Below are positions 2,925 to 61,832 of a DNA stretch of 64,000 nt, piece after piece. Source of the DNA: Patescibacteria group bacterium (lineage in GTDB: Bacteria; Patescibacteriota; Minisyncoccia; Moranbacterales; GWC2-37-73). Below the pieces are notes generated by a model. It did no database searches. It saw only the letters and a program-made list of their open reading frames with translations, and was not told where the DNA came from. Both the position numbers and the translations under genes were made by a program. The stretch covers positions 73,927 through 137,926 of the forward strand of contig JAKLIO010000001.1 of NCBI GenBank assembly GCA_022709565.1, in the 5' to 3' direction. Position 1 is the stretch's first letter; each line of letters begins with the position of its first letter.

Positions 2925-5432
2925 TTAAAGATTAACTACGTCATTATTATCAAGTTTAAGAGTTCCATCATTATTGAGTTTTGAATTAACAAATTTATAT
3001 CTTTCAACACTTCCGGAAATCTTCAAGGCAACGCTTTTCCATTTTTCTGCCTCAGTTGCGTCATTATCATTTTCACACATTTCTACCATGGCAAATGCGT
3101 AAGCTGAAGATTTACTTCGCGTCTCATCGGTTACATATTTTGCGTTAAATATTTCATTTTCCAATTCGTCTTGACCTATTATTAATCCTTTATTATTTCC
3201 ATATTCTATAGAACCAAACAGCGGTCTGAAATTAGTTTGCATATCCAATCTATGATCAAAGTTTCGCCTAACTTTTTCGTTATTATCTAATTCCATTTCT
3301 TCTTCGACACTACTACCGTAAGCAGTTTTTCTTCGTTCATTACCATCCCTGTCTATTGATTTAGAAATAATATTCGTTTGTTCAGATGATTGCTGAAAAA
3401 TTTTTCCGCTAGGAAATTTTACTACATAAAGATGGCGCCTAATTTCAGTTTGGAAATTTGACAATTCACCTATACCAACAATATTATCGGCAACCGCTGG
3501 TGGTTCAACAATCGTCTCTACATAATCCCAATATTCAGTTATTACTTCTTTTGTTTCTACTTTTGCATCATCTGGTATTGGATCAAAGCCTACATATTCC
3601 TCCCCATTTACATAAGTATATTCGTTTTTTTCGGTCCAGTATTTTCCGAGTTGATTATTTTTATTGAAATATTCAGTTAGGCGCTTAGTCAATTGACCTT
3701 CTGTTTCTAACTCTTTTGCTAACATTTGTTCATGATCTGCATTTTTTTTAATTTCTTTATCTAAAATATAAGCGTTTTTTGTTTTAACTGTAGATTCAAG
3801 TTCAGCTGCCCAATCAAAGTGTGGTTTTAATTCGTAATTCTCAACATATTTATCAAATCTCTGCTTTTCATTGTCCTTCAATTCATCATCTTCCATAGTT
3901 GAAATAGACTTACGAATATCCTCGCGTGATACCTCTCGCGAATCAAATAAATATTCATCAACACTTACAGCATTTGATTCACTATCTTGTGATAATTTTT
4001 CGAGCTCCTCTCTCGGTATTTGATAAAATCGCCCCTTGCGTTCAAACAAAAGCGGATACCCAAATTGTTCATTTTCCTGCAGGAGCTTATTTAAACATTC
4101 TTTTTCAACTGGTTTATCAGTGGTAGCAAACAAAGCTCCTATCCTTGGCTCAGAAACAATAAATTCATTATAGCCACTTTGGGAATATTTTCTTTCTTCT
4201 GAGGAAAGCATTTTATTGATACCTTCTACCGTAGCAACTTCTCCCCACCCTTTTCTACTTTTGGGAGATGCGGATCTAGAATTTGCATCATCCGTTGATA
4301 TTTCCGTGCATTCACCATCTCGAAGAATAACTCCTATTGGCTGACCAGCATCTCTGCACCATGTACTGTCGAAATTGTGTGAATCTGCAAAGACAGAAGT
4401 AGAAATCGAAGGACTAAGCCCAGCAAGGGTGTTCAGCTGCTTAAGGGCTTCTTTGGATCTTTTTGAAAATGTATCACCGCTTGACACTTCAATGCCTGAG
4501 GTGCCAGTCTTATTGTTTGCATTTGAAAATCCAGTTAAAAAATGGACACATAAAGCTTTTTTGTCTTTAACTATTGAAGAGATAGAGTTAAAAGGCTTCT
4601 CCTTTTCTGATCTGCTATCGACACGTTCACTGTTGTTTTTATCGATTATACCTTTCAGTCTCTTCGCTTGATGATATGCGGGAATTGCATAATCATTTTC
4701 GTATTTTTCAGCCATTTCAACACTAGGTGTTCCCCTTTTTAATGTCTCAAAAAAATCACCTGCTCTTTTTTCAAAACCTTCAAGAACAACACCCTCTTGA
4801 ATTTCTTTTCTAGCAAAGTCAATGTCTCTTTCTTGTAACAAAGTATTCTCGTATTTTTCAAGGACTCCTGTTTTTCCAAGCTCGACAAAATCTGATTCAT
4901 GAAGCTGATATACAGGACCAATGGAACCATCCTTCATATATCCTATTCTATTCCCCTCTAAATCCCCCTGACTATTTTTTCTAATAGCATACCCGCTAAT
5001 CCTGTCTTCTGCATCTTTAGTTTTAATAATTATCGAACCTTCGAAATTATCATCTTTTGCAATTCCTACAATATTAGCTTTTTCAAAAACTTCTGATTGA
5101 TCTTTTACAGGAATTTTTTCTTTCGATTCATCTTTATTACTAATTCCCGCAACCAATTTATCTTTTGCTCCATCCGCTTCTTGATCTAATCCTTTCAGTT
5201 CTGTTTTATCATTTTCATCAATAGCCAAACCATCTTTTAAAGTTTTTTCAATGTTTACAATTCCTTCTTTCCCCGCGGCCTGAAAATCAGTCACTTCCTT
5301 TTGGGATTGAACTGTCATTTGCTCCGCCATTTTCCGTGCTAATTCTTCGGGAGATTCTTTAGTGGCAGAATCTTCTTTACTTCCCAGCGGCGCTTCAATT
5401 TCTTTTTCATTTTTTATTGTCTCATGGCTCAT
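2925..5432 (-). CDS. Large acidic hypothetical protein (835 aa). I recognise no domain.
   Basis: Long uninterrupted ORF, rich in Lys/Glu/Asp, with no signal peptide or transmembrane segment. Its start codon overlaps the stop of the upstream micro-ORF (ATGA overlap). Confidence 0.6.
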   Translation of the reverse strand: MSHETIKNEKEIEAPLGSKEDSATKESPEELARKMAEQMTVQSQKEVTDFQAAGKEGIVNIEKTLKDGLAIDENDKTELKGLDQEADGAKDKLVAGISNKDESKEKIPVKDQSEVFEKANIVGIAKDDNFEGSIIIKTKDAEDRISGYAIRKNSQGDLEGNRIGYMKDGSIGPVYQLHESDFVELGKTGVLEKYENTLLQERDIDFARKEIQEGVVLEGFEKRAGDFFETLKRGTPSVEMAEKYENDYAIPAYHQAKRLKGIIDKNNSERVDSRSEKEKPFNSISSIVKDKKALCVHFLTGFSNANNKTGTSGIEVSSGDTFSKRSKEALKQLNTLAGLSPSISTSVFADSHNFDSTWCRDAGQPIGVILRDGECTEISTDDANSRSASPKSRKGWGEVATVEGINKMLSSEERKYSQSGYNEFIVSEPRIGALFATTDKPVEKECLNKLLQENEQFGYPLLFERKGRFYQIPREELEKLSQDSESNAVSVDEYLFDSREVSREDIRKSISTMEDDELKDNEKQRFDKYVENYELKPHFDWAAELESTVKTKNAYILDKEIKKNADHEQMLAKELETEGQLTKRLTEYFNKNNQLGKYWTEKNEYTYVNGEEYVGFDPIPDDAKVETKEVITEYWDYVETIVEPPAVADNIVGIGELSNFQTEIRRHLYVVKFPSGKIFQQSSEQTNIISKSIDRDGNERRKTAYGSSVEEEMELDNNEKVRRNFDHRLDMQTNFRPLFGSIEYGNNKGLIIGQDELENEIFNAKYVTDETRSKSSAYAFAMVEMCENDNDATEAEKWKSVALKISGSVERYKFVNSKLNNDGTLKLDNNDVVNL

Positions 5433-9617: not shown

Positions 9618-10511
9618 TTAAACGTCAATAGCCTCTTTTTTTCTGTTTACAGCACGTAGCAAGCGGGTGACCGGCGCGAAGCTTTGGCGATGAATCTCGC
9701 AAGGTCCATATTTGGAAAGCGCGTCCATATGCATTTTAGTTCCATAACCTTTATGTTTGTCAAAACCATACTGCGGATATTTAGCATGCATTTCCATCAT
9801 TATTCGGTCCCGCGTCACTTTAGCAATGATGGAAGCCGCGGAAATTGATTTCACGATTTTGTCACCGCCCACCACCGCCTTTTGTTCCATGGAAAAATTT
9901 GGAATTATCTTGTTTCCATCAACTAGAATTATGTATCTCGTATCTTGTATTTGGTATTTAGTATTTTTAAATTCTTTGTCATTTTGATTTTGGAATTTAT
10001 TTGTCATTGGCAATTTGTCATTTGTCATTTCTCTTTTTAGGGAGACTACCGCTTTTTTCATCGCCAAGAAACTTGCTTCCAGAATATTGATTCGATCGAC
10101 TGTTTCATGATTGCAGAGTCCCACTCCGACATGAAAATTTTCATGAATAAAATCAAAAACCTTTTCCCGCTGTTTTTCGGAAAGTTTTTTGGAGTCTCGG
10201 ACCAACTCCCACATATTAGTATCTGGTATTTGGTATCTAGTGTTTGGTGTATTTTCTTCGGTTTGATTATTTGAACCTTGGTCATTGGTTATTGTTTGTA
10301 TCTTGTTGCTTGGTGATTGGTTATTGCGAAGGAGCACTGCTGCTGCCACTACTGGTCCGCAAAGCGGTCCGCGCCCGGCTTCATCCACTCCGATCACAGC
10401 ATCGAAGCCCTGTTCCAAGAGCTCTTTTTCTAAGTTAAATGTCGACCCCGCACTAACTTTGCGGTTTTTTGGCTTGTTTTCTTTATTGGTTGTTATTTCT
10501 TGTTTCTGCAT
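9618..10511 (-). CDS. rnhB: Ribonuclease HII, with two low-complexity insertions
   Basis: VIGVDEAGRGPLCGPVVAAAV and GGDKIVKSISAASIIAKVTRDRIM are the RNase HII hallmarks. There are Asn/Gln/Thr-rich insertions encoded by tandem nucleotide repeats at about 9975-10030 and 10205-10325. Confidence 0.85.
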   Translation of the reverse strand: MQKQEITTNKENKPKNRKVSAGSTFNLEKELLEQGFDAVIGVDEAGRGPLCGPVVAAAVLLRNNQSPSNKIQTITNDQGSNNQTEENTPNTRYQIPDTNMWELVRDSKKLSEKQREKVFDFIHENFHVGVGLCNHETVDRINILEASFLAMKKAVVSLKREMTNDKLPMTNKFQNQNDKEFKNTKYQIQDTRYIILVDGNKIIPNFSMEQKAVVGGDKIVKSISAASIIAKVTRDRIMMEMHAKYPQYGFDKHKGYGTKMHMDALSKYGPCEIHRQSFAPVTRLLRAVNRKKEAIDV

Positions 10512-13895: not shown

Positions 13896-14233
13896 ATTGA
13901 TTTATTATACCACAAAAACTGGCTCTTTTATTTTTTTCCAAACCATGCTAGCATTGAGTATAATAACTTATCTTGCAAAACCCAGCGGCCAGTCCCCGGG
14001 AGATGAAGATAACACAAGAATATGCAAAAAATTTATTCCTATAATTATATTTTCTGAACTACTTTGACAGTGGTTTTTATTTTTGTTTAAAATGTCAAAA
14101 TCCCAATTTCCAATAACAAATAAATTTCAAAATCCAAAGTTCAAATTTTTGATATTTAGTCATTTGGTTTTGATTGGAAATTTGTCATTTGATATTTGTC
14201 ATTAAAACCAATATTTATTTCCCAAAACTTTCT

Positions 14234-23167: not shown

Positions 23168-23320
23168 AAACTATTCCTAATTTTCAATTTTCAATTTTCA
23201 ATTTTCAAACAATTATTTAATTTTTCAATTTATAAATTGCTTAAAAAATTTAGTCATTTAATCATTGGAAATTTTTTAGAAATTAGAAATTACGACTTAG
23301 AAATTACGAAATTAAAAAAT

Positions 23321-25718: not shown

Positions 25719-27230
25719 TTATTGATATGTTTCTTTAAACTCTTTAATTGCTTTTTCTAAAACTTTTATCACATCGTCGCTCAATTCTTTCTTTTCACTG
25801 ATCAATTTGACAACATCTTTTGCCTGCGCATCTAAAAATTTATGAAAATCATTTTCCCATTGTTTGATTTCTTCCACTGGCACATCATCCACAAAACCAT
25901 TTGCCAAAGCATAGAGAATTGCGACTTGATGTTCCACTGTCATCGGTTCGTATTGCCCTTGTTTCAAAATTTCTACCGTTCGGCGCCCGCGTTCAATTTG
26001 AGCCTTGGTTTTTTCATCCAAATCTGATCCGAATTGAGCAAATGCTTCGAGTTCTCTAAACTGCGCCAAATCCAATTTCAGTTTGCCGGCTACTTTTTTC
26101 ATGGCTTTAATCTGCGCGCTGGATCCCACTCGGGAAACTGAAATTCCCACATTCAATGCCGGTCTGACTCCTTTGTAGAATAAATCTGATTCCAAAAATA
26201 TCTGTCCGTCAGTGATAGAAATAACATTAGTCGGAATGTAGGCCGAAACATCTCCGGCTTGCGTTTCAATAATTGGAAGTGCTGTCATCGAGCCACCACC
26301 AAAATCTTCATTCAGTTTCGCACTCCTCTCCAGAAGGCGTGAGTGCAGATAGAAAACATCTCCAGGATAAGCTTCGCGTCCAGGTGGACGTTTCAAAATT
26401 AAAGAAATTTGTCGGTACGCCCAAGCATGACGAGAAAGATCATCAAAAACAATCAGCACGTCTTCACCTTTGTCCATGAAATATTCTCCCAACGCGCAAC
26501 CAGAATAGGGCGCAATATATGAGAGCGCCGCACTGTCTGATGCGCCGGCAATGATGATGGTTGTATATTCCATAGCGCCAGCTTTTTCCAATTCACCCAA
26601 GATGCGCGCAATTTTTGATTCTTTCTGTCCGACAGCCACATAGATGCATTTCATATTCTGTCCTTTCTGATTGATAATTGTGTCAATCGCAATCGCAGTT
26701 TTACCGGTTTGGCGGTCACCGATTATGAGTTCTCTTTGTCCGCGCCCGATTGGAATCAAAGCATCAATGGCCTTAATACCTGTTTGTACTGGCTGATTCA
26801 CGGATTTTCTAGTAATGACCCCCGGCGCAATTTTTTCCACTGGATAATATTTGTCCGTTTTAATATCTCCTTTAGCATCAACTGGAATTCCCAACGGATT
26901 AATAACTCGCCCCATCATTGCTTCAGAAACAGGAATAGAAAGAATTTTCCCGGTCGCTTTCACTTCGTCGCCTTCTTTGATGCCGATAAAATTTCCCAGC
27001 ACCATCACGCCGACTCGATCTTCTTCGAGATTAAGCGCTACTCCGATTTCGCCACCGGGAAATTCCACCATTTCCGAAGCCATGATGTCAGAAAGTCCGC
27101 TGATGCGAGCCACGCCATCACCCACTTCCACAACCTTGCCGACTTTTTCCGTCGTCACTTCGGTTTTGAAGTTTTCAATCTGTTTTTTAAGCTGTTCGAC
27201 AATAAAATCTTTGTTCATAATTTTCAGCAT
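25719..27230 (-). CDS. atpA: F1 ATP synthase alpha subunit
   Basis: [20 protein letters not shown] Walker A. 503 aa. Confidence 0.95.
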
Positions 27231-27322
27231 TCAGTATTCAGAATTCAGTATTCAGCATTTCGCTGCATATTGTACACTGTATACTGTTTCTATAAAATAA
27301 ACTTATAAAAAATTTAAACTTT

Positions 27323-27724
27323 TTAGCTTACTAAATTTTTTCTCAATCTTTTCAATTGACCCCCTACTGATCCATCCAAAACTTCATCCCCGACTTTAAT
27401 GATTATTCCGCCTTTGATTTTTTCATCCACAATATTTTTCACTATAACTTCCTTGGCAGAATATTTCTCCTTAATAAAATTTTCAACTTGCTGAATCTTG
27501 TCACGTGATAGCTCACGTGAGGAAATTACGTTCGCTTCCACAATTCCATGCTTCGCATTATAAATTTCGGAAAATTTTTCCATGATTTTTCCGGCATTCT
27601 TGATCTGCCCGTCTTTTTTGAGAACTTCAGCAAATTTTTTCACCACATCAGAAACAGCCTGTTCAGTTTTCCTGTCAGTTAGCTCTAGAAGTGTTTTTGC
27701 GTATTGCTGAACTGTAATTTTCAT
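27323..27724 (-). CDS. atpH: F1 ATP synthase delta (OSCP) subunit
   Basis: Delta-like sequence ...YAKTLLEL...GGIIIKVGDEVLDGSV... Operon position. Confidence 0.8.
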   Translation of the reverse strand: MKITVQQYAKTLLELTDRKTEQAVSDVVKKFAEVLKKDGQIKNAGKIMEKFSEIYNAKHGIVEANVISSRELSRDKIQQVENFIKEKYSAKEVIVKNIVDEKIKGGIIIKVGDEVLDGSVGGQLKRLRKNLVS

Positions 27725-28213: not shown

Positions 28214-28354
28214 GTGTCAGTAATCAGTAACCAGTAATCAGTAACCAGTAAAAACTGTACGCTGAATGCTGTATACTGCATGTTTATGTTTTATATTAAA
28301 ATATTTTCTTTTTGGCACCCCACTTAATAAAAATGAGGAGCCATAACAAAACAT

Positions 28355-28594
<240 letters not shown>

Positions 28595-28764
28595 TCAGCT
28601 ATATTTTCTCCTCTTTGGGGAAGATAGATGATGCATGCATTAAATTAATAATAATTTCTAATTTTCAATTTCTAATTTCTAAACAATTTCTAATGATTCA
28701 ATTTGTAAATTTGAAAATTTAAAGCATTGTTTGAAAATTGAAAATTGAGAATTGAAAATTATTT

Positions 28765-30201: not shown

Positions 30202-31116
30202 TTATAAAATATCTAGCGATAATTTGGCATTCTGTGTTGTTTTTTCAGCCACTTCTGCCAGGGGAATATTTTTCACCGTCGCGATTTTTTCCGCCACCAG
30301 TTTCACGAAAATCGGTTCATTGCGCTCGCCTTTATGCGGGACGGGTGTCAAATATGGGCAGTCAGTTTCAATAACGATATTTGCAAGATCAATTTCCTTG
30401 ATCAAGCGATCATAACTTTCACTATAAGTAATGATGCCATTAATCCCAATTTTGTAGCCCATTTCAATGAATTTATTGGCAGTTTTATGACTCCCGACGA
30501 AGCTATGCACAATTCCTTTCCTTGCAACTGAATATTTCTGCAAAATTTCCAAAAGATCGTCATACGCATCCGTTCGGGTGTGAACGAGCTCCTTGCGAGA
30601 CTTTACGCCCCAGCAGTGCAATACTATCGGCTTGTTCACTTCATTAGCCATTTTAATAAATTTTATCAAAACTTCTTTTTGCTGTTTTTTTAACTCTTCA
30701 ATGTTATCGCCTTCATCAAAGTGATGGTAGTCCAACCCAACCTCCCCAATCGCCACCACTTTTTCATCCCGAGCCAGTTCCAGATATTTTTCATATTCAA
30801 ATTCTTCGCCTTTGGTTTTTATTTCCCCGCCTCGCGTCGACAAGCGGTCTCCGCGAGTCGAGGCGGGCACTTCATCCAACTCTCCCGGATCATTATATTT
30901 AAAAGCTCCCGCTTTGAGATGCACTGGATGAATTCCGATTGCAGCAAAAATGCCAGTTTCAAATTTGTGCGCATATTCAACCGCCCGCTGGCTGGTCGAA
31001 TATTGCGAACCGACATTCACAACAAAAACGCCCTCGGCGAGGCATTTTTTGAGAACTTCTTCTCCGTCTTCCTTGAAAGCGGAAAAATTCACGTGAGCAT
31101 GAGAATCGAAAAACAT
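30202..31116 (-). CDS. tatD: TatD-family metal-dependent hydrolase/DNase carrying an in-frame insertion
   Basis: MFFDSHAHVNF start, ...IGIHPVH... and AIGEVGLDYHH motifs. The insertion of about 25-30 aa (PASTRGDRLSTRGGEIKTKGEEFEYEKY) is partly encoded by a GC-rich palindrome at 30826-30872. Confidence 0.85.
   Translation of the reverse strand: MFFDSHAHVNFSAFKEDGEEVLKKCLAEGVFVVNVGSQYSTSQRAVEYAHKFETGIFAAIGIHPVHLKAGAFKYNDPGELDEVPASTRGDRLSTRGGEIKTKGEEFEYEKYLELARDEKVVAIGEVGLDYHHFDEGDNIEELKKQQKEVLIKFIKMANEVNKPIVLHCWGVKSRKELVHTRTDAYDDLLEILQKYSVARKGIVHSFVGSHKTANKFIEMGYKIGINGIITYSESYDRLIKEIDLANIVIETDCPYLTPVPHKGERNEPIFVKLVAEKIATVKNIPLAEVAEKTTQNAKLSLDIL
30826..30872. repeat. GC-rich palindromic element, copy 1. 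It lies inside the tatD coding sequence, in frame.
   Basis: CCCGCCTCGcgtcgacaagcggtctccgcgagtCGAGGCGGG. It is about 90% identical to the copy at 55918-55965, and its GC content is far above the local about 35%. Confidence 0.6.
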
Positions 31117-31583: not shown

Positions 31584-33005
31584 CTATTTTATCCGCTGGA
31601 AAAGCGGCTCGACTTGCTTTGTTTCCAGAGCTTTTTTGATCTTTTCAGAAGTATCAGGCAAAAACGGCAGCAGCAACTGAGAAATTAGGTCTAAATCATC
31701 CAGTAATTTTTGCATTACTTCTTTAAATTTCTTTTCATTTGATTTAGCAAGTTCCCAGGGTTTATTATCTTCTATATATTTATTATCTTCCTTAATAATA
31801 TTCCATATATATTCTAATGCCTTATCTATTTGAAATTTATCCAAAAATTTTGAAATTTGGTCATTGGTCATTGAAAATTCATTGGAAATTGGAAATTGGT
31901 CATTGGTCATTGAACTTAATTTCACGGTACGTGAAATTAAGTTGCCTATTCCATTTGCCAGATCCGCATTGTATTTCTCTGTCATCCACTCCCAGCTAAT
32001 ATCCGCATCATCTCCAAAACTGTTAAGACTTAGCAAAATGTAGCGCGTTCCATCAATGCCAAATTTTTCTACCATTTCATAGGGCGAAATTACATTACCC
32101 AAAGACTTCGACATCTTTTGCCCATTGCTAGTCAAAAAACTATTGATAAAAATTTGTTTTGAAGCTGGCAAATTGACTGCCATAAGCATAGCCTGCCACA
32201 TTGCCGATTGCGGACGCAAGTTGTCCTTGCCGGCCACTTGAATCCCTGGCCACCAAGAATTAAATTTTTTCATATCATCCGGCCATCCGATTGCTGAAAT
32301 ATAATTGACCAAAGCATCAAACCAGACATACATTACTTGTTCTTCGTCGTCAGGAACCGGCACGCCCCAGGGCATTTTTTCTTTCACGCGTGAAATTGAA
32401 AAATCTTCTAAGCCCATACTAACAAAACTTTTTATTTCATTAAATCGATGCGCTGGAACGACAAAGTTAGGATTTTTTTCATATAATTCTAGCAATTTTT
32501 GCTGGAAAGCGGAAAATTTAAAAAAATAATTTTCTTCTTCCCTGATTTCAATTTCTCTGTTGGGATGCAAAGGACAGCAATTGTCAACCAATTCCGAATC
32601 TGTTTTTTCCATTTCGCAACCGACGCAATATTTTGTTTTATAATTTTTCTTATAAATATAGCCGTTATTTTTGGTTTGTCGCCAAAATTCCTGCGCTGCC
32701 TTCACGTGATGTTCATCAGTCGTGCGAATAAAATTATCAAAACTTAAATTCAGAACATTTTTCAGTTCCCTGAATTTTTCTACTTGTTGATCACAATAGA
32801 CTTGCGTATCCAATCCAAGTTCATTGGCTCGTTCAAATATTTTTGATCCGTGTTCATCCGTGCCAATATTAAAAAAAATATCGTTACCGGATAGTCTTTG
32901 AAATCTCGCCCAAGCATCTGCCCTGACGACTTCCCATGCATAACCAACATGCGGATCAGCGTTTATGTATGGCAGTGTTGTTGTAATGTAAAATTTATTT
33001 TGCAT
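31584..33005 (-). CDS. metG: Methionyl-tRNA synthetase with a low-complexity in-frame insertion
   Basis: KMSKSLGNVISP (the KMSKS motif), a Zn-knuckle CVGCEME, and an N-terminus TTTLPYINADPHVGYAWE. The tandem-repeat-encoded insertion SSMTNDQFPISNEFSMTNDQISKF is at about 31845-31915. Confidence 0.9.
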   Translation of the reverse strand: MQNKFYITTTLPYINADPHVGYAWEVVRADAWARFQRLSGNDIFFNIGTDEHGSKIFERANELGLDTQVYCDQQVEKFRELKNVLNLSFDNFIRTTDEHHVKAAQEFWRQTKNNGYIYKKNYKTKYCVGCEMEKTDSELVDNCCPLHPNREIEIREEENYFFKFSAFQQKLLELYEKNPNFVVPAHRFNEIKSFVSMGLEDFSISRVKEKMPWGVPVPDDEEQVMYVWFDALVNYISAIGWPDDMKKFNSWWPGIQVAGKDNLRPQSAMWQAMLMAVNLPASKQIFINSFLTSNGQKMSKSLGNVISPYEMVEKFGIDGTRYILLSLNSFGDDADISWEWMTEKYNADLANGIGNLISRTVKLSSMTNDQFPISNEFSMTNDQISKFLDKFQIDKALEYIWNIIKEDNKYIEDNKPWELAKSNEKKFKEVMQKLLDDLDLISQLLLPFLPDTSEKIKKALETKQVEPLFQRIK

Positions 33006-48346: not shown

Positions 48347-49477
48347 GTGAAAAATGACAACTTAGCATACTCAACACACAATCTGCTTAATTTGCTCCCT
48401 GAACCCACCAAAGAAGATCTCGCATCAGAAGAAGATCAAGATTTTGAACCAGAAAAAGAACCGACAGATGTATCAGCCAATCAAAAATTAGATAATGATC
48501 ACATTACCGACCCTTTTCTCCTTTACATCAGAAGCATAAATAGATATCCGCGTTTAACAAAGGAGAAAGAACAAGAATTGTTAAGATTTGGCGAGCTCGG
48601 CCGTAAAAAGGTACTCGTTCATAACTTGCACCTTGTGGTCAAAATAGCCAAAAAATACGCCACAGGGAATGATTTGCTTCTGGATTTGATTCAGGATGGA
48701 AATATCGGGCTTCTTCACGCAATGGACAAGTTTGATCGCAAGAGAGGCTTCAGATTTTCGACCTATGCAACTTGGTGGATTCGTCAGGCTTGCGCAATTA
48801 CATTGTCAAAGCAATTAAGGACAATTAGAGTCCCTTCAAATGTCTTGGAAGAAATGCGCAAAATGAAAAGGGCTGAAACAAAGCTGAGAAGCGAGCTGGG
48901 AAGAAAAGCTAGCAGCATTGAAGTGGCTAAGCAAATGGGCCTAAAAGCGAAAGCTATCGATAACATAAAAAAAACAGGGACCCAAAAAACCATTTCACTG
49001 TCTCTGCCGGTAGGAGAAAACGACGATAGTCAACTTCAAGACTTTATTGCTGATGATTATTATGATTCGCCGGAAGATCTAGCTTTGAAAAAGGAATACC
49101 ACGAGTTTCAGGATAAAATAATCTTGAAAGCTGTCGGCAATTGTGACAGCGGGAAAGTCTTCGAAATAATACGAAGACAAAATATTTTATCTAACCCCTT
49201 CCCCACTGAAAGGCAGAAAAAGAAACGCCCAAGAAAGCTGGCTAATGTCCTCAAAAATATGGGTATTTCCAAGCTAAATGAAAACGAAAGACGTTTCTAT
49301 ATCTTGACCTTGAGAAGAAAAGATTTTTCTCTTGAATACATTGGAAAAGAACTTGGCGTTACGCGTGAAAGGATAAGAAAAATCGAGGAGAACACCATTA
49401 AAAAAATTGCCATGGTGTTTAGATCAGAAACAATGAATGAAGCAATCAGAAAAGAGGCCTTGCTGTTAGGAAGTTAA
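48347..49477 (+). CDS. Sigma-70-family RNA polymerase sigma factor (alternative; GTG start)
   Basis: Region 2 ([36 protein letters not shown]), region 3, and region 4 ([20 protein letters not shown]). The Shine-Dalgarno AAAGGAG is 8 nt before the GTG. This is distinct from the housekeeping rpoD at 55979. Confidence 0.8.
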   Translation: MKNDNLAYSTHNLLNLLPEPTKEDLASEEDQDFEPEKEPTDVSANQKLDNDHITDPFLLYIRSINRYPRLTKEKEQELLRFGELGRKKVLVHNLHLVVKIAKKYATGNDLLLDLIQDGNIGLLHAMDKFDRKRGFRFSTYATWWIRQACAITLSKQLRTIRVPSNVLEEMRKMKRAETKLRSELGRKASSIEVAKQMGLKAKAIDNIKKTGTQKTISLSLPVGENDDSQLQDFIADDYYDSPEDLALKKEYHEFQDKIILKAVGNCDSGKVFEIIRRQNILSNPFPTERQKKKRPRKLANVLKNMGISKLNENERRFYILTLRRKDFSLEYIGKELGVTRERIRKIEENTIKKIAMVFRSETMNEAIRKEALLLGS

Positions 49478-52916: not shown

Positions 52917-53042
52917 AGAATATTCTTTTTGAAAATTTTTATAATCTAAAATAATTATATCATAAAAATATTAGCGATCATGTTTGACTTCACTAATACT
53001 AGCAAATCAATGCGGCTGAAACTGAACTGTATAATTTGTTTT

Positions 53043-53084
53043 ATTAGCTATTCACGTGACCCATCACGTGAGGCCTCACGTTAC
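53043..53084. promoter_or_regulatory. 42 nt repeat, copy 1, with three TCACGTGA-type palindromes. It lies upstream of gene 52035..52916.
   Basis: attagctatTCACGTGAcccaTCACGTGAggccTCACGTtac. It is nearly identical to 54963-55004. Confidence 0.5.
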
Positions 53085-54950: not shown

Positions 54951-54962
54951 ATTTTTTATTTT

Positions 54963-55004
54963 ATTAGTTATTCACGTGACCCCTCACGTGAGGCCTCACG
55001 TTAC
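54963..55004. promoter_or_regulatory. 42 nt repeat, copy 2 (TCACGTGA palindromes), ending 13 nt upstream of the start codon of gene 53109..54950
   Basis: attagttatTCACGTGAccccTCACGTGAggccTCACGTtac. Confidence 0.5.
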
Positions 55005-55137: not shown

Positions 55138-55741
55138 CACATTATCTCTTTGTTTCCAAAAAGGGTGGACTATATCATTCCCACTCTTTTATAAAAGGGC
55201 GGGATGAGGCGCTTCCTGGGATTAAAAATCCAAGTACTCTCTTGCGAGATAGTCTCTGAACCTTCCCTAAAAGGGTTTGGCTGCTGATTACCATAATTTC
55301 TGCTGAGAAATTTTAGGCTTCCAGTCCCGATATTATCAATTTTGTAATTGAATAAAACCGAGATCCCATTTTATTGGGACAATTCACCTCATTCTTCACT
55401 TCCAAATTTCTTTGGAAGGCTGCGAATATTGTTGTGCAATTCCCTATGGCAATTCGCGCACACAAGAATACATTTGTCAATTTCATTTTTTATTCTTTCC
55501 CAACTGCGAGTTAAACCATCTTGGGAAATTGCAAAATCCTTTTTTGAAGAATCATTATGATGAAATTCTAATGCATCACTGCAACGATCATAACCACAAA
55601 GTGCACATCTACCACCTCCGTATTGAACTGCCATTTCTCGAAGTTTTCTTCGTCTTTTCGAAACAGCTTTGATCATATACTCTCGGCGGTCAGCATATTT
55701 TCGGGTTTCCTTCATATTTTTTTAAATAAAGGATGTGTACC
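55138..55741 (-). mobile_element. Group I self-splicing intron carrying an HNH homing endonuclease gene
   Basis: The intron 3' region carries the catalytic-core consensus elements R (GGTTCAGAGACTATC) and S (AATGATATAGTCC), giving P7 pairing GACUA/UAGUC, and a Q-like AATCAGCAGCCAAACCC. The intron ends in G and the 5' exon ends in U. The first 330 nt hold an HNH ORF. Confidence 0.7.
55389..55715 (-). CDS. HNH homing endonuclease (intron-encoded)
   Basis: CALCGY...LEFHHNDSSKK...N...CILVCANCHRELHN is the HNH/His-Me finger with two CxxC zinc knuckles. 108 aa. Confidence 0.85.
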   Translation of the reverse strand: MKETRKYADRREYMIKAVSKRRRKLREMAVQYGGGRCALCGYDRCSDALEFHHNDSSKKDFAISQDGLTRSWERIKNEIDKCILVCANCHRELHNNIRSLPKKFGSEE

Positions 55742-55885: not shown

Positions 55886-55917
55886 CGCATTATTGGAAAT
55901 TAGAAATTTGTCATTGC

Positions 55918-55965
55918 CCGCCTCGCATCGACGAGCAATCGTCTCTGCGAGTCGAGGCGGGGAAA
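55918..55965. repeat. GC-rich palindromic element, copy 2 (intergenic, just downstream of the rpoD stop)
   Basis: CCCGCCTCGcatcgacgagcaatcgtctctgcgagtCGAGGCGGGG. It is a paralogue of the copy at 30826-30872 and is preceded by a TTTGTCATT-family repeat. Confidence 0.6.
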
Positions 55966-55978
55966 TTGCGCGAAGCGC

Positions 55979-57421
55979 TTAGTAGTCTTTCAGCTTGCCA
56001 ATTGTCCTGTTCTGTCTGATCTTTTCCAAGGCCTTGGCTTCAATTTGGCGGATACGTTCGCGGGTAACGCCGAATTCTTTGCCCACCTCTTCCAAAGTAT
56101 GCGTGACGCCGTCTTCCAAACCGAAACGGATCTTGAGAATTTTCTGTTCACGCGGAGTCAGCTCCCGCAAAACTTCACCAACATGATTTTTAAGCAATTT
56201 CCTGGAAGCCACTTGATGCGGCATAACTGTTTCCGTATCTTCAATAAAATCTCCCAACACGCTGTCATCATCGCTATCGCCGACAGAAGTTTCAAGCGAT
56301 ACTGTCTCCTGCGAAATTTTTTGGATGTGTCTTATCTTATCGACATCCAAATCCATTTCAGAAGCTATTTCTTCCGCTAGCGGTTCGCGTCCCAATTCCT
56401 GCACTAATCTTCTGGTTATCTGCGTATACTTGTTGATTGTTTCCACCATGTGCACTGGAATCCTGATCGTTCTGGATTGATCCGCCAAGGCGCGCGTAAT
56501 GGCCTGGCGAATCCACCAAGTCGCATAAGTTGAAAATTTGAAACCTTTTCGGTAATCGAATTTTTCCACGGCGCGAAAAAGTCCTATGTTGCCTTCCTGA
56601 ATCAAATCCAAAAGCGAGAGATTATGGGAACGGCCCACATATTTCTTGGCAATGCTGACAACCAGACGAAGATTGGCTTCAGTTAATTTCTGTTTTGCCA
56701 TGAGATCTCCTTTTTCGCTGGCTTTGGCCAGTTTGACTTCTTCTTCAGTTTTAAGCAGCGCCACCCGTCCAATTTCCCGAAAATACATCTGAACCAAATC
56801 GGAAGAACTGTCTTCTATTCCTTCGCCCAAAAGCGCATCGGCAGTCTTGTCTTTTTTGCTCTTTTCATATATTTCAACTTCTTTGTCCGTGTCAATTTTG
56901 AGCATATCGTCAGAAACGACAATTTTCACTCCGGCAGTTTCCAGCTGTTCATACAGATTTTCCAGTTCAGCAATCTCTTCTTCAACATCAGGAATAAGAT
57001 TAATTATTTCATCCTCCGTCACAAAGCCGCGCTGCTTGCCACGCGCAATGAGTTCCGCGATTATATCAATCTTTTCCGGAAATTCTCCCTGGATTTCTTT
57101 GGCTATTTTTTTCTTGCGGACAACTGGTTGTTTTTTAGAAGATACTTTTTTAGGTGCTGTTTTTTTCTTCACGCTGGCAGTTTTCTTCTTGGCGATTTTT
57201 TTAGCTTTCTTAGGGAAAGGCTTTCTTGCTTTTGTCGGTTTAGCGATCTTCTTTTTTTTCATTTTTTTCACAAGGTTATTTTTTTTATGATTTTTATTTT
57301 TTCCTGCGCCAACGGAAAACTTTCGGACAGCTTTCTTTCCGACTTTTTTAAGCGGCTTCTTTTGCTTTTTTTTCATTTTTTTAGAATAAAGAGTGAAGAT
57401 TTTATTATAAACAAACACCAA
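55979..57421 (-). CDS. rpoD: RNA polymerase primary sigma factor (sigma-70) with a Lys-rich N-terminal extension
   Basis: Region 1.2/2 ([60 protein letters not shown]), region 4 ([26 protein letters not shown]), and the classic dnaG-rpoD gene order. Confidence 0.9.
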
Positions 57422-60368: not shown

Positions 60369-61832
60369 CTAAATTTTCTTTGTTTTTGCCGAATGCGTTT
60401 TCTCTTCCGCGCCTTCTTTTCCAAGTACTATAGCCACCAAATCGCCGGCAATTAATTGCCCTGCAGCTTTCTGATTTTCTATCATTTCATTGGCCACTTT
60501 TGCCAGTTCTTTTTCCTGAAAAAAGAACCCTTCCGCTCCCCAGATTAAGGACATTTGATTATACGTCTTTTCTTTATTTGTTGCAACCAGCAAGGGTTTC
60601 TCCATGCGAAAATGAGAAACCAGCCGCGCTGTAAATCCGGAAGCGCTGGCTACCGCAATAGCTTTGACATTTTTGTCTTTGGCCAGTTCGTAGGCGCTCT
60701 TAACAAAATTTTTGAAATCTTCATCATCTTTTAATTTGAGCAAATGGGTTACGTTATCATAAGGCGAGCTTTCTGTGTTCTCAATAATATCTTTCATAAT
60801 GCGCACACTTTCAACCGGATATTTTCCATTAGCCGCTTCACCGCTAAGCATGACGGCATCGACATGATCGATAACTGCGTTGGTCACATCACTGACCTCG
60901 GCGCGTGTCGGACGCGGATTTTTAATCATCGAATCTAGCATTTGCGTTGCCATGATTACTGGCTTCATTTTTTGGAGACTTTTTTCCACGATTTCTTTTT
61001 GAAAAACTCCCACCTTGCTTTCATCCATTTCAATTCCCAGATCTCCGCGCGCCACCATAACCACATCAGTGTGCTCAACAATATCATCCAGATTTTTGAT
61101 CGCTTCTTTGCGTTCGATTTTCGCCACAATTTGGGGCAAATCATTCTCGCGCTTTAGAATTTTCTTAATTTTGTCTCGTAGATTTTCAATATTCTCGCCA
61201 CTGGACACAAACGACATGGCCACAAAATCAACTTCATTTTGGAGGGAAAATTCCAAATCTTTTTCATCCTTTTCTGTAATCGGATCAATACTAAGTTTTG
61301 CATCCGGAATATTAATGCCTTTGTGATTTTTAATTGTTCCGCCGTCAATAACTTCGGCTAACAATACGCCGTCATTTTTTTCCCTGACTACAACCTTCAT
61401 TAATCCATCTTCGATCAAGATTTCATTGCCAACTTCAATGTCATCAACAATTTTATTTACATCCAGACTAAATTTTTTATCATTTGAAATTTGATCATTG
61501 GAAATTGTTTGGAAATTGGAAATTGGAAATTGGAAATTGGGGGCATAAAATATATCACTGACCAACACAAAATCGCCGGACTTAATTTCCACCTCTGACT
61601 GCACTAAAGTTCGTATCCTAGGTCCTTGCAAGTCCGCCATAATACCAATCGGCTTTTTCATTTCAGCGGAAAGTTCGCGGATGATTTTAATCACGTTGCC
61701 ATGCCATTCATAAGAGCCATGGGAAAAATTAAGCCGAGCCACGTTCATGCCCGCCTCAATCATTTCGCGGATAACCTCCCTGCTGTCCGAAACCAATCCT
61801 AGTGTTGCTACAATTTTTGTATGTTTCGCCAT
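60369..61832 (-). CDS. pyk: Pyruvate kinase with a low-complexity in-frame insertion
   Basis: MAKHTKIVATLGLVS...NVARLNFSHGS...IMADLQGPRIRT, and MVARGDLGIE. The tandem-repeat-encoded insert FQFPISNFQTISNDQISNDKKFS is at about 61478-61543. Confidence 0.9.
   Translation of the reverse strand: MAKHTKIVATLGLVSDSREVIREMIEAGMNVARLNFSHGSYEWHGNVIKIIRELSAEMKKPIGIMADLQGPRIRTLVQSEVEIKSGDFVLVSDIFYAPNFQFPISNFQTISNDQISNDKKFSLDVNKIVDDIEVGNEILIEDGLMKVVVREKNDGVLLAEVIDGGTIKNHKGINIPDAKLSIDPITEKDEKDLEFSLQNEVDFVAMSFVSSGENIENLRDKIKKILKRENDLPQIVAKIERKEAIKNLDDIVEHTDVVMVARGDLGIEMDESKVGVFQKEIVEKSLQKMKPVIMATQMLDSMIKNPRPTRAEVSDVTNAVIDHVDAVMLSGEAANGKYPVESVRIMKDIIENTESSPYDNVTHLLKLKDDEDFKNFVKSAYELAKDKNVKAIAVASASGFTARLVSHFRMEKPLLVATNKEKTYNQMSLIWGAEGFFFQEKELAKVANEMIENQKAAGQLIAGDLVAIVLGKEGAEEKTHSAKTKKI

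Follow-up and report, generated by a model that had tools for sequence, protein, structure and literature searches.

The stretch analyzed here is 64,000 nt of contig JAKLIO010000001.1 from a Patescibacteria group bacterium (called the window below), and its subject is a family of 7-nt tandem repeats that occurs both between genes and inside the reading frames of three essential enzymes, RNase HII (rnhB), methionyl-tRNA synthetase (MetRS, gene metG), and pyruvate kinase (Pyk, gene pyk). As to the host lineage, the best relatives of MetRS, Pyk, and TrmD are from Candidatus Moranbacteria and Patescibacteria metagenome-assembled genomes. The genes metG, pyk, and rnhB were confirmed by Pfam, and the atp operon in the window has the gene order atpBEFHAGDC. 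A Nostocales origin, which the cyanobacterial look of the TTGGTCA unit might suggest, was rejected on this gene order and on the taxonomy of the homologues. An initial annotation of this DNA had located repeats of 6-9 nt at a number of positions and quoted two of the peptides that they encode. Each of these coordinates holds a repeat tract and both peptides are correct, but the unit is exactly 7 nt. In a periodicity scan the window had 14 period-7 tracts totalling 383 nt, while 20 dinucleotide shuffles had a mean of 0.45 and a maximum of 2, and thus the repeats far exceed what AT-rich composition would give. Periods 14 and 21 were enriched too (10 and 8 tracts), and the remaining periods from 3 to 20 were at the background level with 0-4 tracts each. 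The units on the plus strand are TTGGTCA, TTGGAAA, TTTGTCA, TCAGTAA, TTCAGTA, AATTTTC, TTAGAAA, TTGAAAA, and GTATTTG. About half of the tracts are in the non-coding ~12% of the window, and the other half are inside genes, which is unusual. Single heptamer words were not over-represented on their own in counts over the window, indicating that the signal sits in arrays and modules and not in words. The same tract sequence was obtained from eight independent assemblies and therefore the tracts are not assembly artefacts. A uniform strand orientation of the units was considered and rejected, since the atp spacers are mutually inverted copies. The period-7 bias was also found in relatives (L099, L101, and L102). 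The tracts, together with a hairpin that adjoins one of them, are listed here by their coordinates in the window; E-values are from nhmmer with a hidden Markov model (HMM) of the module described below.

9933-10037, minus strand: insertion 2 in rnhB (aa 159-193, ~35 aa), a TGACAAA-type array followed by an AAATACN-type array (KNTKYQIQDTRY).
10209-10322, minus strand: insertion 1 in rnhB (aa 64-101, ~38 aa), degenerate heptamers of the types CAAATAC, CCAATGA, and CCAATCA.
14091-14205, no strand: degenerate inverted pair of modules upstream of dnaE, in a divergent spacer (weak nhmmer matches, E 0.005 and 0.1).
23178-23306, no strand: palindromic pair of modules in the atpD-atpC spacer, arms 23178-23239 (plus) and 23247-23306 (minus); the sense strand has (TTGAAAA)4 just 5' of atpC.
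27223-27259, minus strand: (CTGAATN)5 array that extends to the start codon of atpA.
28217-28251, minus strand: (TTACTGR)5 array that ends 3 nt 5' of the start codon of atpF, with no Shine-Dalgarno sequence.
28652-28761, no strand: palindromic pair of modules in the atpB-atpE spacer, arms 28652-28711 (plus) and 28699-28761 (minus).
31845-31911, minus strand: module variant in metG, (AATGACC)2 (AATTTCC)2 AATGAATTTTC (AATGACC)2 AAATTTC, with the peptide MTNDQFPISNEFSMTNDQISKF.
31913-31943, no strand: perfect 14-bp hairpin in metG (AACTTAATTTCACG gta CGTGAAATTAAGTT), which abuts the module directly and is made of NLISRTVKLS codons.
55892-55916, minus strand: short mosaic fragment TTGGAAA TTAGAAA TTTGTCA between two GC-rich hairpins (nhmmer E 0.014).
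61473-61538, minus strand: stop-free 66-nt module in pyk, (AATTTCC)4 AAACAATTTCC AATGATC AAATTTC AAATGAT AAAAAA, with the peptide NFQFPISNFQTISNDQISNDKK.

When the arms were aligned in one orientation, the coding arms of pyk and metG and the intergenic arms of the atp spacers had one and the same layout of ~60-66 nt, in which four AATNNNC units are followed by AAACAAT, an irregular junction, and then by a TTCCAATGAYCAAAT tail (TTCYAATGAT and further heptamers). Between genes, two such modules face each other and form palindromes of ~125 nt (the atpD-atpC and atpB-atpE spacers). Inside genes there is a single stop-free module, read in one frame as the pyk peptide or its variants, and the intergenic arms have TAA where the in-gene arms have CAA. 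Self-comparison of the window by blastn joined these copies to one another. The two atp spacers, atpD-atpC and atpB-atpE, are inverted copies of each other (90% over 63 nt and 84% over 61 nt), the pyk tract has matches both in metG (79% over 58 nt) and in an atp spacer (89% over 36 nt), and rnhB at 9982-10015 matches the region upstream of dnaE at 14138-14105 in inverted orientation (88% over 34 nt). These self-matches are not circular, in contrast to the HMM E-values of the six arms used for training, such as the pyk arm (61482-61539, E 2.4e-15), which were not used as evidence. On the window the HMM did not reach the rnhB inserts, which use other units, and Rfam had no match above the gathering score at any tract. 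Judged by these alignments, the tracts are a dispersed family of modules and not independent microsatellites. The mosaic fragment at 55892-55916 adjoins one of two copies (30826-30867 and 55917-55961, 84% identical) of a GC-rich palindromic element, CCCGCCTCG...CGAGGCGGG, whose other copy is in the TatD gene region.

Frame-kept insertions had been proposed for all three essential genes. This holds for pyk and rnhB, whereas the metG tract is a loop replacement. Compared with solved structures (3t05 and 2e28), the pyk tract is a true insertion of ~18-22 aa in a loop of the B domain. The AlphaFold model of Pyk has a pLDDT of 85 overall, and values of 73 and 64 at residues 101-120 against at least 90 in the flanks, as expected of an extruded loop. 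Both rnhB insertions are also true insertions at sites that are variable loops in homologues from the candidate phyla radiation (CPR), among which the window versions are the longest. The 3' half of rnhB insertion 2 is identical at 37 of 44 nt to the pyk loop of a close relative (L102), and a second cassette family, with AAATACN units and the peptide KNTKYxIQDT(K/R)Y, is thus common to rnhB of the window and pyk of L102. In metG, the tract overwrites a variable loop between two helices of the anticodon-binding domain. This loop has about the same length in every relative and in the Aquifex MetRS (2csx), and the tract is therefore not a net insertion. Splicing of the modules out of the message was considered as well and was rejected, because every in-gene copy lacks stops and has a length divisible by 3, while the intergenic copies carry TAA.

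The same module was found in unrelated genes when metagenome contigs were scanned for the exact 30-nt irregular junction. Ten loci were obtained, and by Pfam they are six pyk genes, a Mur ligase gene, the Fpg glycosylase gene (fpg), the TrmD gene (trmD), and a stretch without a long open reading frame (ORF). In all ten, the shared sequence starts at AATTTCC and ends at GACAAAAAA, a length of 66 nt or 22 codons, and its peptide is NFQFPISNFQ(T/S)ISNDQISNDKK. The MetRS gene of L006 also carries the 66-nt module. The module is open in three of its six frames, and all five coding hosts (pyk, Mur ligase, fpg, trmD, and metG) use the same one of these; the same nucleotide sequence thus gives the same peptide in unrelated enzymes, in agreement with the earlier claim of similar peptide inserts from one repeat. 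Filled and empty alleles were also found. Three Mur ligase orthologues lack 36 aa that are inserted in the enzyme of L109, and for trmD there is an empty site in L159, a gene longer by 66 nt in L158, and a gene longer by 66 and another 21 nt in L112 (87 nt longer than the empty allele). The additional 21 nt of L112 (~2250-2275) are a GC-rich hairpin, CCTTGCCTACCGGCAGGCAGG, nested exactly within one heptamer of the module, and it leaves the frame and the heptamer register intact and encodes LPTGRQV or LPAGRQA. Peptides like these also occur in other loop cassettes (proteins P0364, TrmD, and P0086, Pyk). The discrete 66-nt module in these genes and in the ORF-less stretch, together with the empty site in trmD, fits a small insertion element, one of the two origins suggested in the initial annotation. 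In relatives, period-7 arrays are also found inside FemAB and Mur ligase genes. Two perfect in-frame arrays of L099 have other units, (AAAGTCG)4.7 in the FemAB gene (3457-3489) and (TTCGAAA)4.4 in the Mur ligase gene (5138-5168).

The pyk insert is widespread in Moranbacteria, in Pyk proteins that are 59-91% identical to that of the window. At identical residues, the codons are 86-91% identical in the insert vs 51-55% elsewhere (Fisher p 1e-4 to 3e-3). The insert is thus kept at the nucleotide level, beyond the protein level, and its presence in distant relatives does not contradict the earlier view that this is not ordinary protein evolution, which we share. Close relatives with pyk flanks 86-91% identical have loops that are only 62% (L113) or 9% (L102) identical, while distant relatives with flanks 64-75% identical have loops that are 86-94% identical. 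Since close relatives carry other cassettes and distant ones the same cassette, the phylogeny of the loop contradicts the gene tree. The units change in concert: all four are AATTTCC in the window and AATTTTA in L113 (with one AATTTGA), and in the atpB-atpE spacer some strains have ATTTTCA units and others ATTTTAA. The loop of L102 is an AAATACN array, and the L101 copy of the module is decaying. The exchanged patch exceeds the module by a few codons, with IFYAP...KKFS as in the distant relatives where close relatives have VAKDH...GKFL. A few kb upstream of pyk, two relatives have genes with a 23S_rRNA_IVP or bAvd-like domain (L100 1694-2071 and L102 3459-3830); bAvd is an accessory protein of diversity-generating retroelements.

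Cassette turnover was also seen at other sites. Depending on the lineage, the metG loop contains TGACCAA/TTTCCAA mosaics, the pyk-type module, a TTTTCAA module, CAGTTAT units, AAAACGA units, or a GC-rich palindrome pair; the CAGTTAT (L044, peptide LSAISYQ) and AAAACGA (L062) units are from different CPR lineages. In L002 and L004 the loop (~4080-4140 in each) has, instead of heptamers, the palindromic motif pair GAAGCTAAGCTTC ... GAAGCTTAGCTTC with the peptide EAKLRGESPRSLASG or SEAKLLSQNRSLASD, a second kind of in-frame mini-element. The trmD loop likewise exchanges its cassettes, and so does the site at the atpB stop codon, where the array units are ATTTTCA, ATTTTAA, TTAGCTN, or AAAGTTN in strains whose AtpE proteins are identical. 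Over short evolutionary times the tracts hold steady, with not a single indel among eight same-species assemblies from different samples in 7.4 kb that include the metG and atpB-atpE tracts. The other suggested origin, an actively expanding or contingency locus, is not borne out.

AT-rich sites, named in the initial annotation as targets of a possible insertion element, are not supported in that role; what often stands beside the module is a hairpin. A perfect stem of at least 7 bp that ends 0-10 nt upstream of it was found in 4 of 7 independent contexts (metG, trmD, fpg, and the ORF-less stretch) and not in the other three (pyk, Mur ligase, and FemAB). The background chance is 0.031 for a search interval of that size, which gives p ~ 3e-5 as a binomial estimate. 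The stems are built of host codons and differ from context to context. In metG, the stem of the window is the same in L001 and is 11 bp long in L003, and in L005 and L006 the same codons form different stems, of 7 bp, which show a compensatory change (G..C vs T..A), GCGAGTG/CACTCGC vs GCGAGTT/AACTCGC. A compensatory change was also found in trmD, AACGCCG/CGGCGTT vs AATGCCG/CGGCATT, and the empty trmD allele has no hairpin. None of the explanations considered below accounts well for these hairpins.

The units also occur in viral contigs of IMG/VR. (AATTTCC)3 was found in 10 contigs, eight of which have a GC content >50%, and (AATGACC)3 in 28, compared with 7 for a shuffled control heptamer, mostly in AT-rich giant-virus bins. 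Four contigs of 66-68% GC (L119, L134, L144, and L121) have dense period-7 arrays (AATGACC, AATTTCC, CCCACTC, CCGCCTA, and AAATCCC), often as perfect inverted pairs or directly before ATG. An array in L119 leads into the start codon of an ORF that, from the look of its N-terminus, may encode a DNA methyltransferase. The junction pattern itself had no match in the viral contigs.

The interpretation that we favor, and to which we give about an even chance, is that the tracts are copies of a Moranbacteria-wide family of heptamer-built mini-repeats, selfish or copy-pasted, that resembles the short tandemly repeated repetitive (STRR) sequences of cyanobacteria and the Rickettsia palindromic elements (RPE), and that the family is spread by a copy process, homogenized by slippage, and filtered by selection. 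Arms would be copied to new sites by a non-homologous or short-homology process, a step that we infer and for which ectopic gene conversion, replication template switching, and a putative mobility enzyme are candidate routes. Slippage would keep the units uniform within an arm, and selection would then filter the survivors. Between genes, inverted pairs of ~125 nt could persist, forming hairpins and carrying TAA stops, and inside genes only single arms would persist, with CAA for TAA, a length divisible by 3, a single hydrophilic frame, and a tolerant surface loop as the site. A loop with a cassette might become a hot spot in which family members are swapped faster than the gene diverges, and the inserts would be translated passengers and not functional protein domains.

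A number of points weigh against this interpretation. The data comprise 64 kb of this genome and short loci from relatives. Target-site duplications are not apparent where the module joins trmD or the Mur ligase gene, the empty alleles there being only 55-81% identical, and among 40 window ORFs scanned with Pfam, ~15 of which have no match at all, none has a transposase, HUH, or reverse-transcriptase domain. It is hard to see why a supposedly neutral passenger would keep its nucleotide sequence at one and the same pyk site in different species, unless conversion from a conserved donor pool goes on or the DNA or RNA is itself constrained. Selection on structure is suggested by the perfect hairpins and their compensatory changes, and it would not be expected of a family that is purely selfish. 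Finally, the same heptamers in unrelated GC-rich viral contigs hint at a factor that recognizes such sequences.

The last three points lead to the main rival, a cis-acting function of hairpin and array, which we regard as possible but doubtful. The heptamer arrays and neighboring hairpins would be putative binding or structural sites, such as unstructured AU-rich translation leaders, RNA processing or stability hairpins in operon spacers, or heptad iterons for a DNA- or RNA-binding protein, and the in-gene copies would be collateral or functional at the mRNA or DNA level. Consistent with this, arrays abut the start codons of atpF, atpA, and atpC, there is no Shine-Dalgarno sequence for atpF or atpA, and the five units before atpF are retained with point changes in another strain (L087-89). 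The atpB-atpE spacer RNA is predicted to form a single long hairpin (-42.6 kcal/mol, z = -5.56). The codon-level conservation in pyk, the stems beside the module in four contexts with their compensatory changes in trmD and metG, and the AATTTCC, AATGACC, and AAATTAG units of GC-rich viral contigs, where they form inverted pairs and stand immediately 5' of ATG, point the same way, and a role of this kind has been proposed for TAACTGA repeats (MacGregor 2015, PMC4679880). However, the unit at the same spacer varies between strains with identical neighboring proteins, and the arrays occur in both orientations relative to transcription, the sense-strand RNA of the atpD-atpC spacer folding no better than shuffled sequence (z = -0.45). 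Moreover, loops that hold one cassette have unrelated heptamers in its place in close relatives, the L101 copy is decaying, and the in-gene copies share no common position relative to any gene feature.

Plain simple-sequence repeats are another explanation, and an unlikely one. Local polymerase slippage would favor 7-nt units (the model of Mrazek et al. 2007), and the likeness between loci would come from AT-richness and selection for stop-free hydrophilic units. The limitation of the enrichment to period 7 and its multiples, the concerted change of units within an array, and the different units in the same metG loop of CPR lineages (CAGTTAT and AAAACGA) all agree with slippage, and heptamers are, as summarized in two papers (PMC4679880 and PMC4692102), the most over-represented long simple-sequence repeats in many bacteria. 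What slippage cannot explain is a 58-66-nt composite with an irregular junction that is common to five unrelated genes and to intergenic copies, the discordance between module and gene phylogenies, and the inverted ~125-nt duplicate spacers; single heptamer words are also not over-represented alone. It is thus already disfavored, and assembly chimeras as a source of the shared composites are ruled out by the independent assemblies.

Short-patch homologous recombination between species, by natural transformation, would move loop cassettes among orthologues with no spread between different loci. The pyk patch that extends a few codons past the module is what such exchange would leave, but modules in non-homologous genes and intergenic spacers are left unexplained, and we consider it improbable. 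Contingency loci, in which changes in tract copy number switch or tune genes, are hardly credible here: gain or loss of one unit in the perfect 4.6-unit pyk array would shift the frame and short contigs often break within the TTAGAAA array, but the eight same-species assemblies have no copy-number variation, the hosts are essential single-copy enzymes, and the array length is identical in species with pyk genes only 66-75% identical.

Descriptions of heptamer arrays go back to 1990 for cyanobacteria, and later ones concern Xanthomonas, Beggiatoaceae, and Bacteroidetes. The cyanobacterial STRR heptanucleotide sequences were reportedly described by Mazel and colleagues in 1990, and the STRR2 consensus is said to be TT(G/T)GTCA, which would equal the window units TTGGTCA and TTTGTCA. 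Similar to STRR sequences, the tracts consist of tandem 7-nt units at many dispersed loci, mostly intergenic and sometimes in inverted pairs. However, the host here is a CPR bacterium and not a heterocystous cyanobacterium, and the window family has a conserved 60-66-nt module, frequent translation in essential enzymes, and nucleotide conservation across species. Heptamers among long simple-sequence repeats in general were treated by Rehm 2015 (PMC4692102). TAACTGA direct repeats have been described in Beggiatoaceae, Cyanobacteria, and Bacteroidetes, with a patchy distribution across phyla; their arrays end a few nt before start codons, often with no Shine-Dalgarno sequence, and occasional reverse copies are translated in ORFs as LSVISYQ (MacGregor 2015, PMC4679880). 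The window arrays are also close upstream of start codons (atpF, atpA, and atpC), and the CAGTTAT units in metG of L044, which encode LSAISYQ, are the reverse of TAACTGA. The window unit TTACTGA/TTACTGG is one mismatch away, and while in-gene copies are peripheral and rare in Beggiatoa, here they occupy internal loops of housekeeping enzymes.

RPE are described as in-frame selfish repeats in many unrelated metabolic and housekeeping genes of a reduced genome, with a peptide that the fold of the host protein can accommodate (Ogata et al. 2000, as reviewed in PMC10969869). Like RPE, the module is in frame in unrelated genes (pyk, Mur ligase, fpg, trmD, and metG), has a conserved peptide, and has palindromic intergenic copies. 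RPE are ~100-150 bp, are inserted as whole palindromes, and are not built of heptamers, whereas here the in-gene copies are single 66-nt arms and only the intergenic copies are ~125-nt palindromes. Miniature inverted-repeat transposable elements would have terminal inverted repeats, target-site duplications, and a related autonomous element or transposase. Here the intergenic copies have inverted arms, no duplication is apparent in trmD or the Mur ligase gene, where the empty alleles are rather divergent, and Pfam found no transposase-type domain in the 40 window ORFs scanned. In Nostoc punctiforme, Elhai and colleagues reportedly described in 2008 small dispersed repeats of 21-27 nt, very small and apparently mobile, that are tied to tandem heptamer arrays and are sometimes in frame. 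The 21-nt hairpin in trmD behaves like these repeats, while the main module differs in being 66 nt, heptamer-made, and from another phylum. Housekeeping proteins of Plasmodium have Asn-rich low-complexity inserts that are locally generated with a period of 3 and share no discrete nucleotide module. The window inserts resemble them in being surface loops rich in N, Q, S, D, and I in essential enzymes of an AT-rich genome. In the literature searched, no paper joined heptamer, palindromic, or in-frame repeats with CPR or Patescibacteria. To the known arrays, this locus adds a new host group, a defined 66-nt module, filled and empty alleles, codon-level conservation, a phylogeny discordant with that of the gene, and a link to hairpins.

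A more far-reaching idea, which we hold to be speculative and unlikely, starts from the recurrence of one heptamer set, TT(G/T)GTCA, TTGGAAA, and TTAGAAA (complements AATGACC and AATTTCC), in CPR, cyanobacteria, and GC-rich phage-like contigs. A conserved putative machinery would recognize or write these units beside hairpins, and in Moranbacteria it would repeatedly replace surface loops of essential enzymes by interchangeable cassettes of 66 nt, so that the tracts would represent natural, templated loop replacement rather than passive junk DNA. A dedicated mechanism, should there be one, would amount to a natural means of rewriting protein loops. Of more immediate consequence, alignments of "universal" marker proteins are inflated and distorted by the inserts in CPR sequences. 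The module family also breaks short-read assemblies, since short metagenome contigs bearing atpE (L082, L084, L085, and L086) start inside the TTAGAAA array. The earlier interpretation as a whole is thus partly supported.

The window has several other features. The only Rfam matches are two tRNAs and a complete group I catalytic intron at 55146-55423 on the minus strand (RF00028, 55.8 bits, E 1.8e-11), which overlaps the start of a 108-aa ORF (55389-55715); ARAGORN found no tRNA at the intron site. An 835-aa ORF at 2925-5432 (minus strand) and ~15 other ORFs had no Pfam match at E < 1e-4. A 50-nt repeat, 94% identical between 53035-53084 and 54955-55004, places TCACGTGA boxes on both sides of a FecR-like gene, and the box is also found at 27501-27520. 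TCACGTG is the most over-represented heptamer of the window (9 vs 1.1 expected) and looks like an operator motif. Furthermore, two sigma-70 family paralogues are on opposite strands, and their region 2 sequences (48676-48789 and 56502-56615) are 78% identical over 114 nt.

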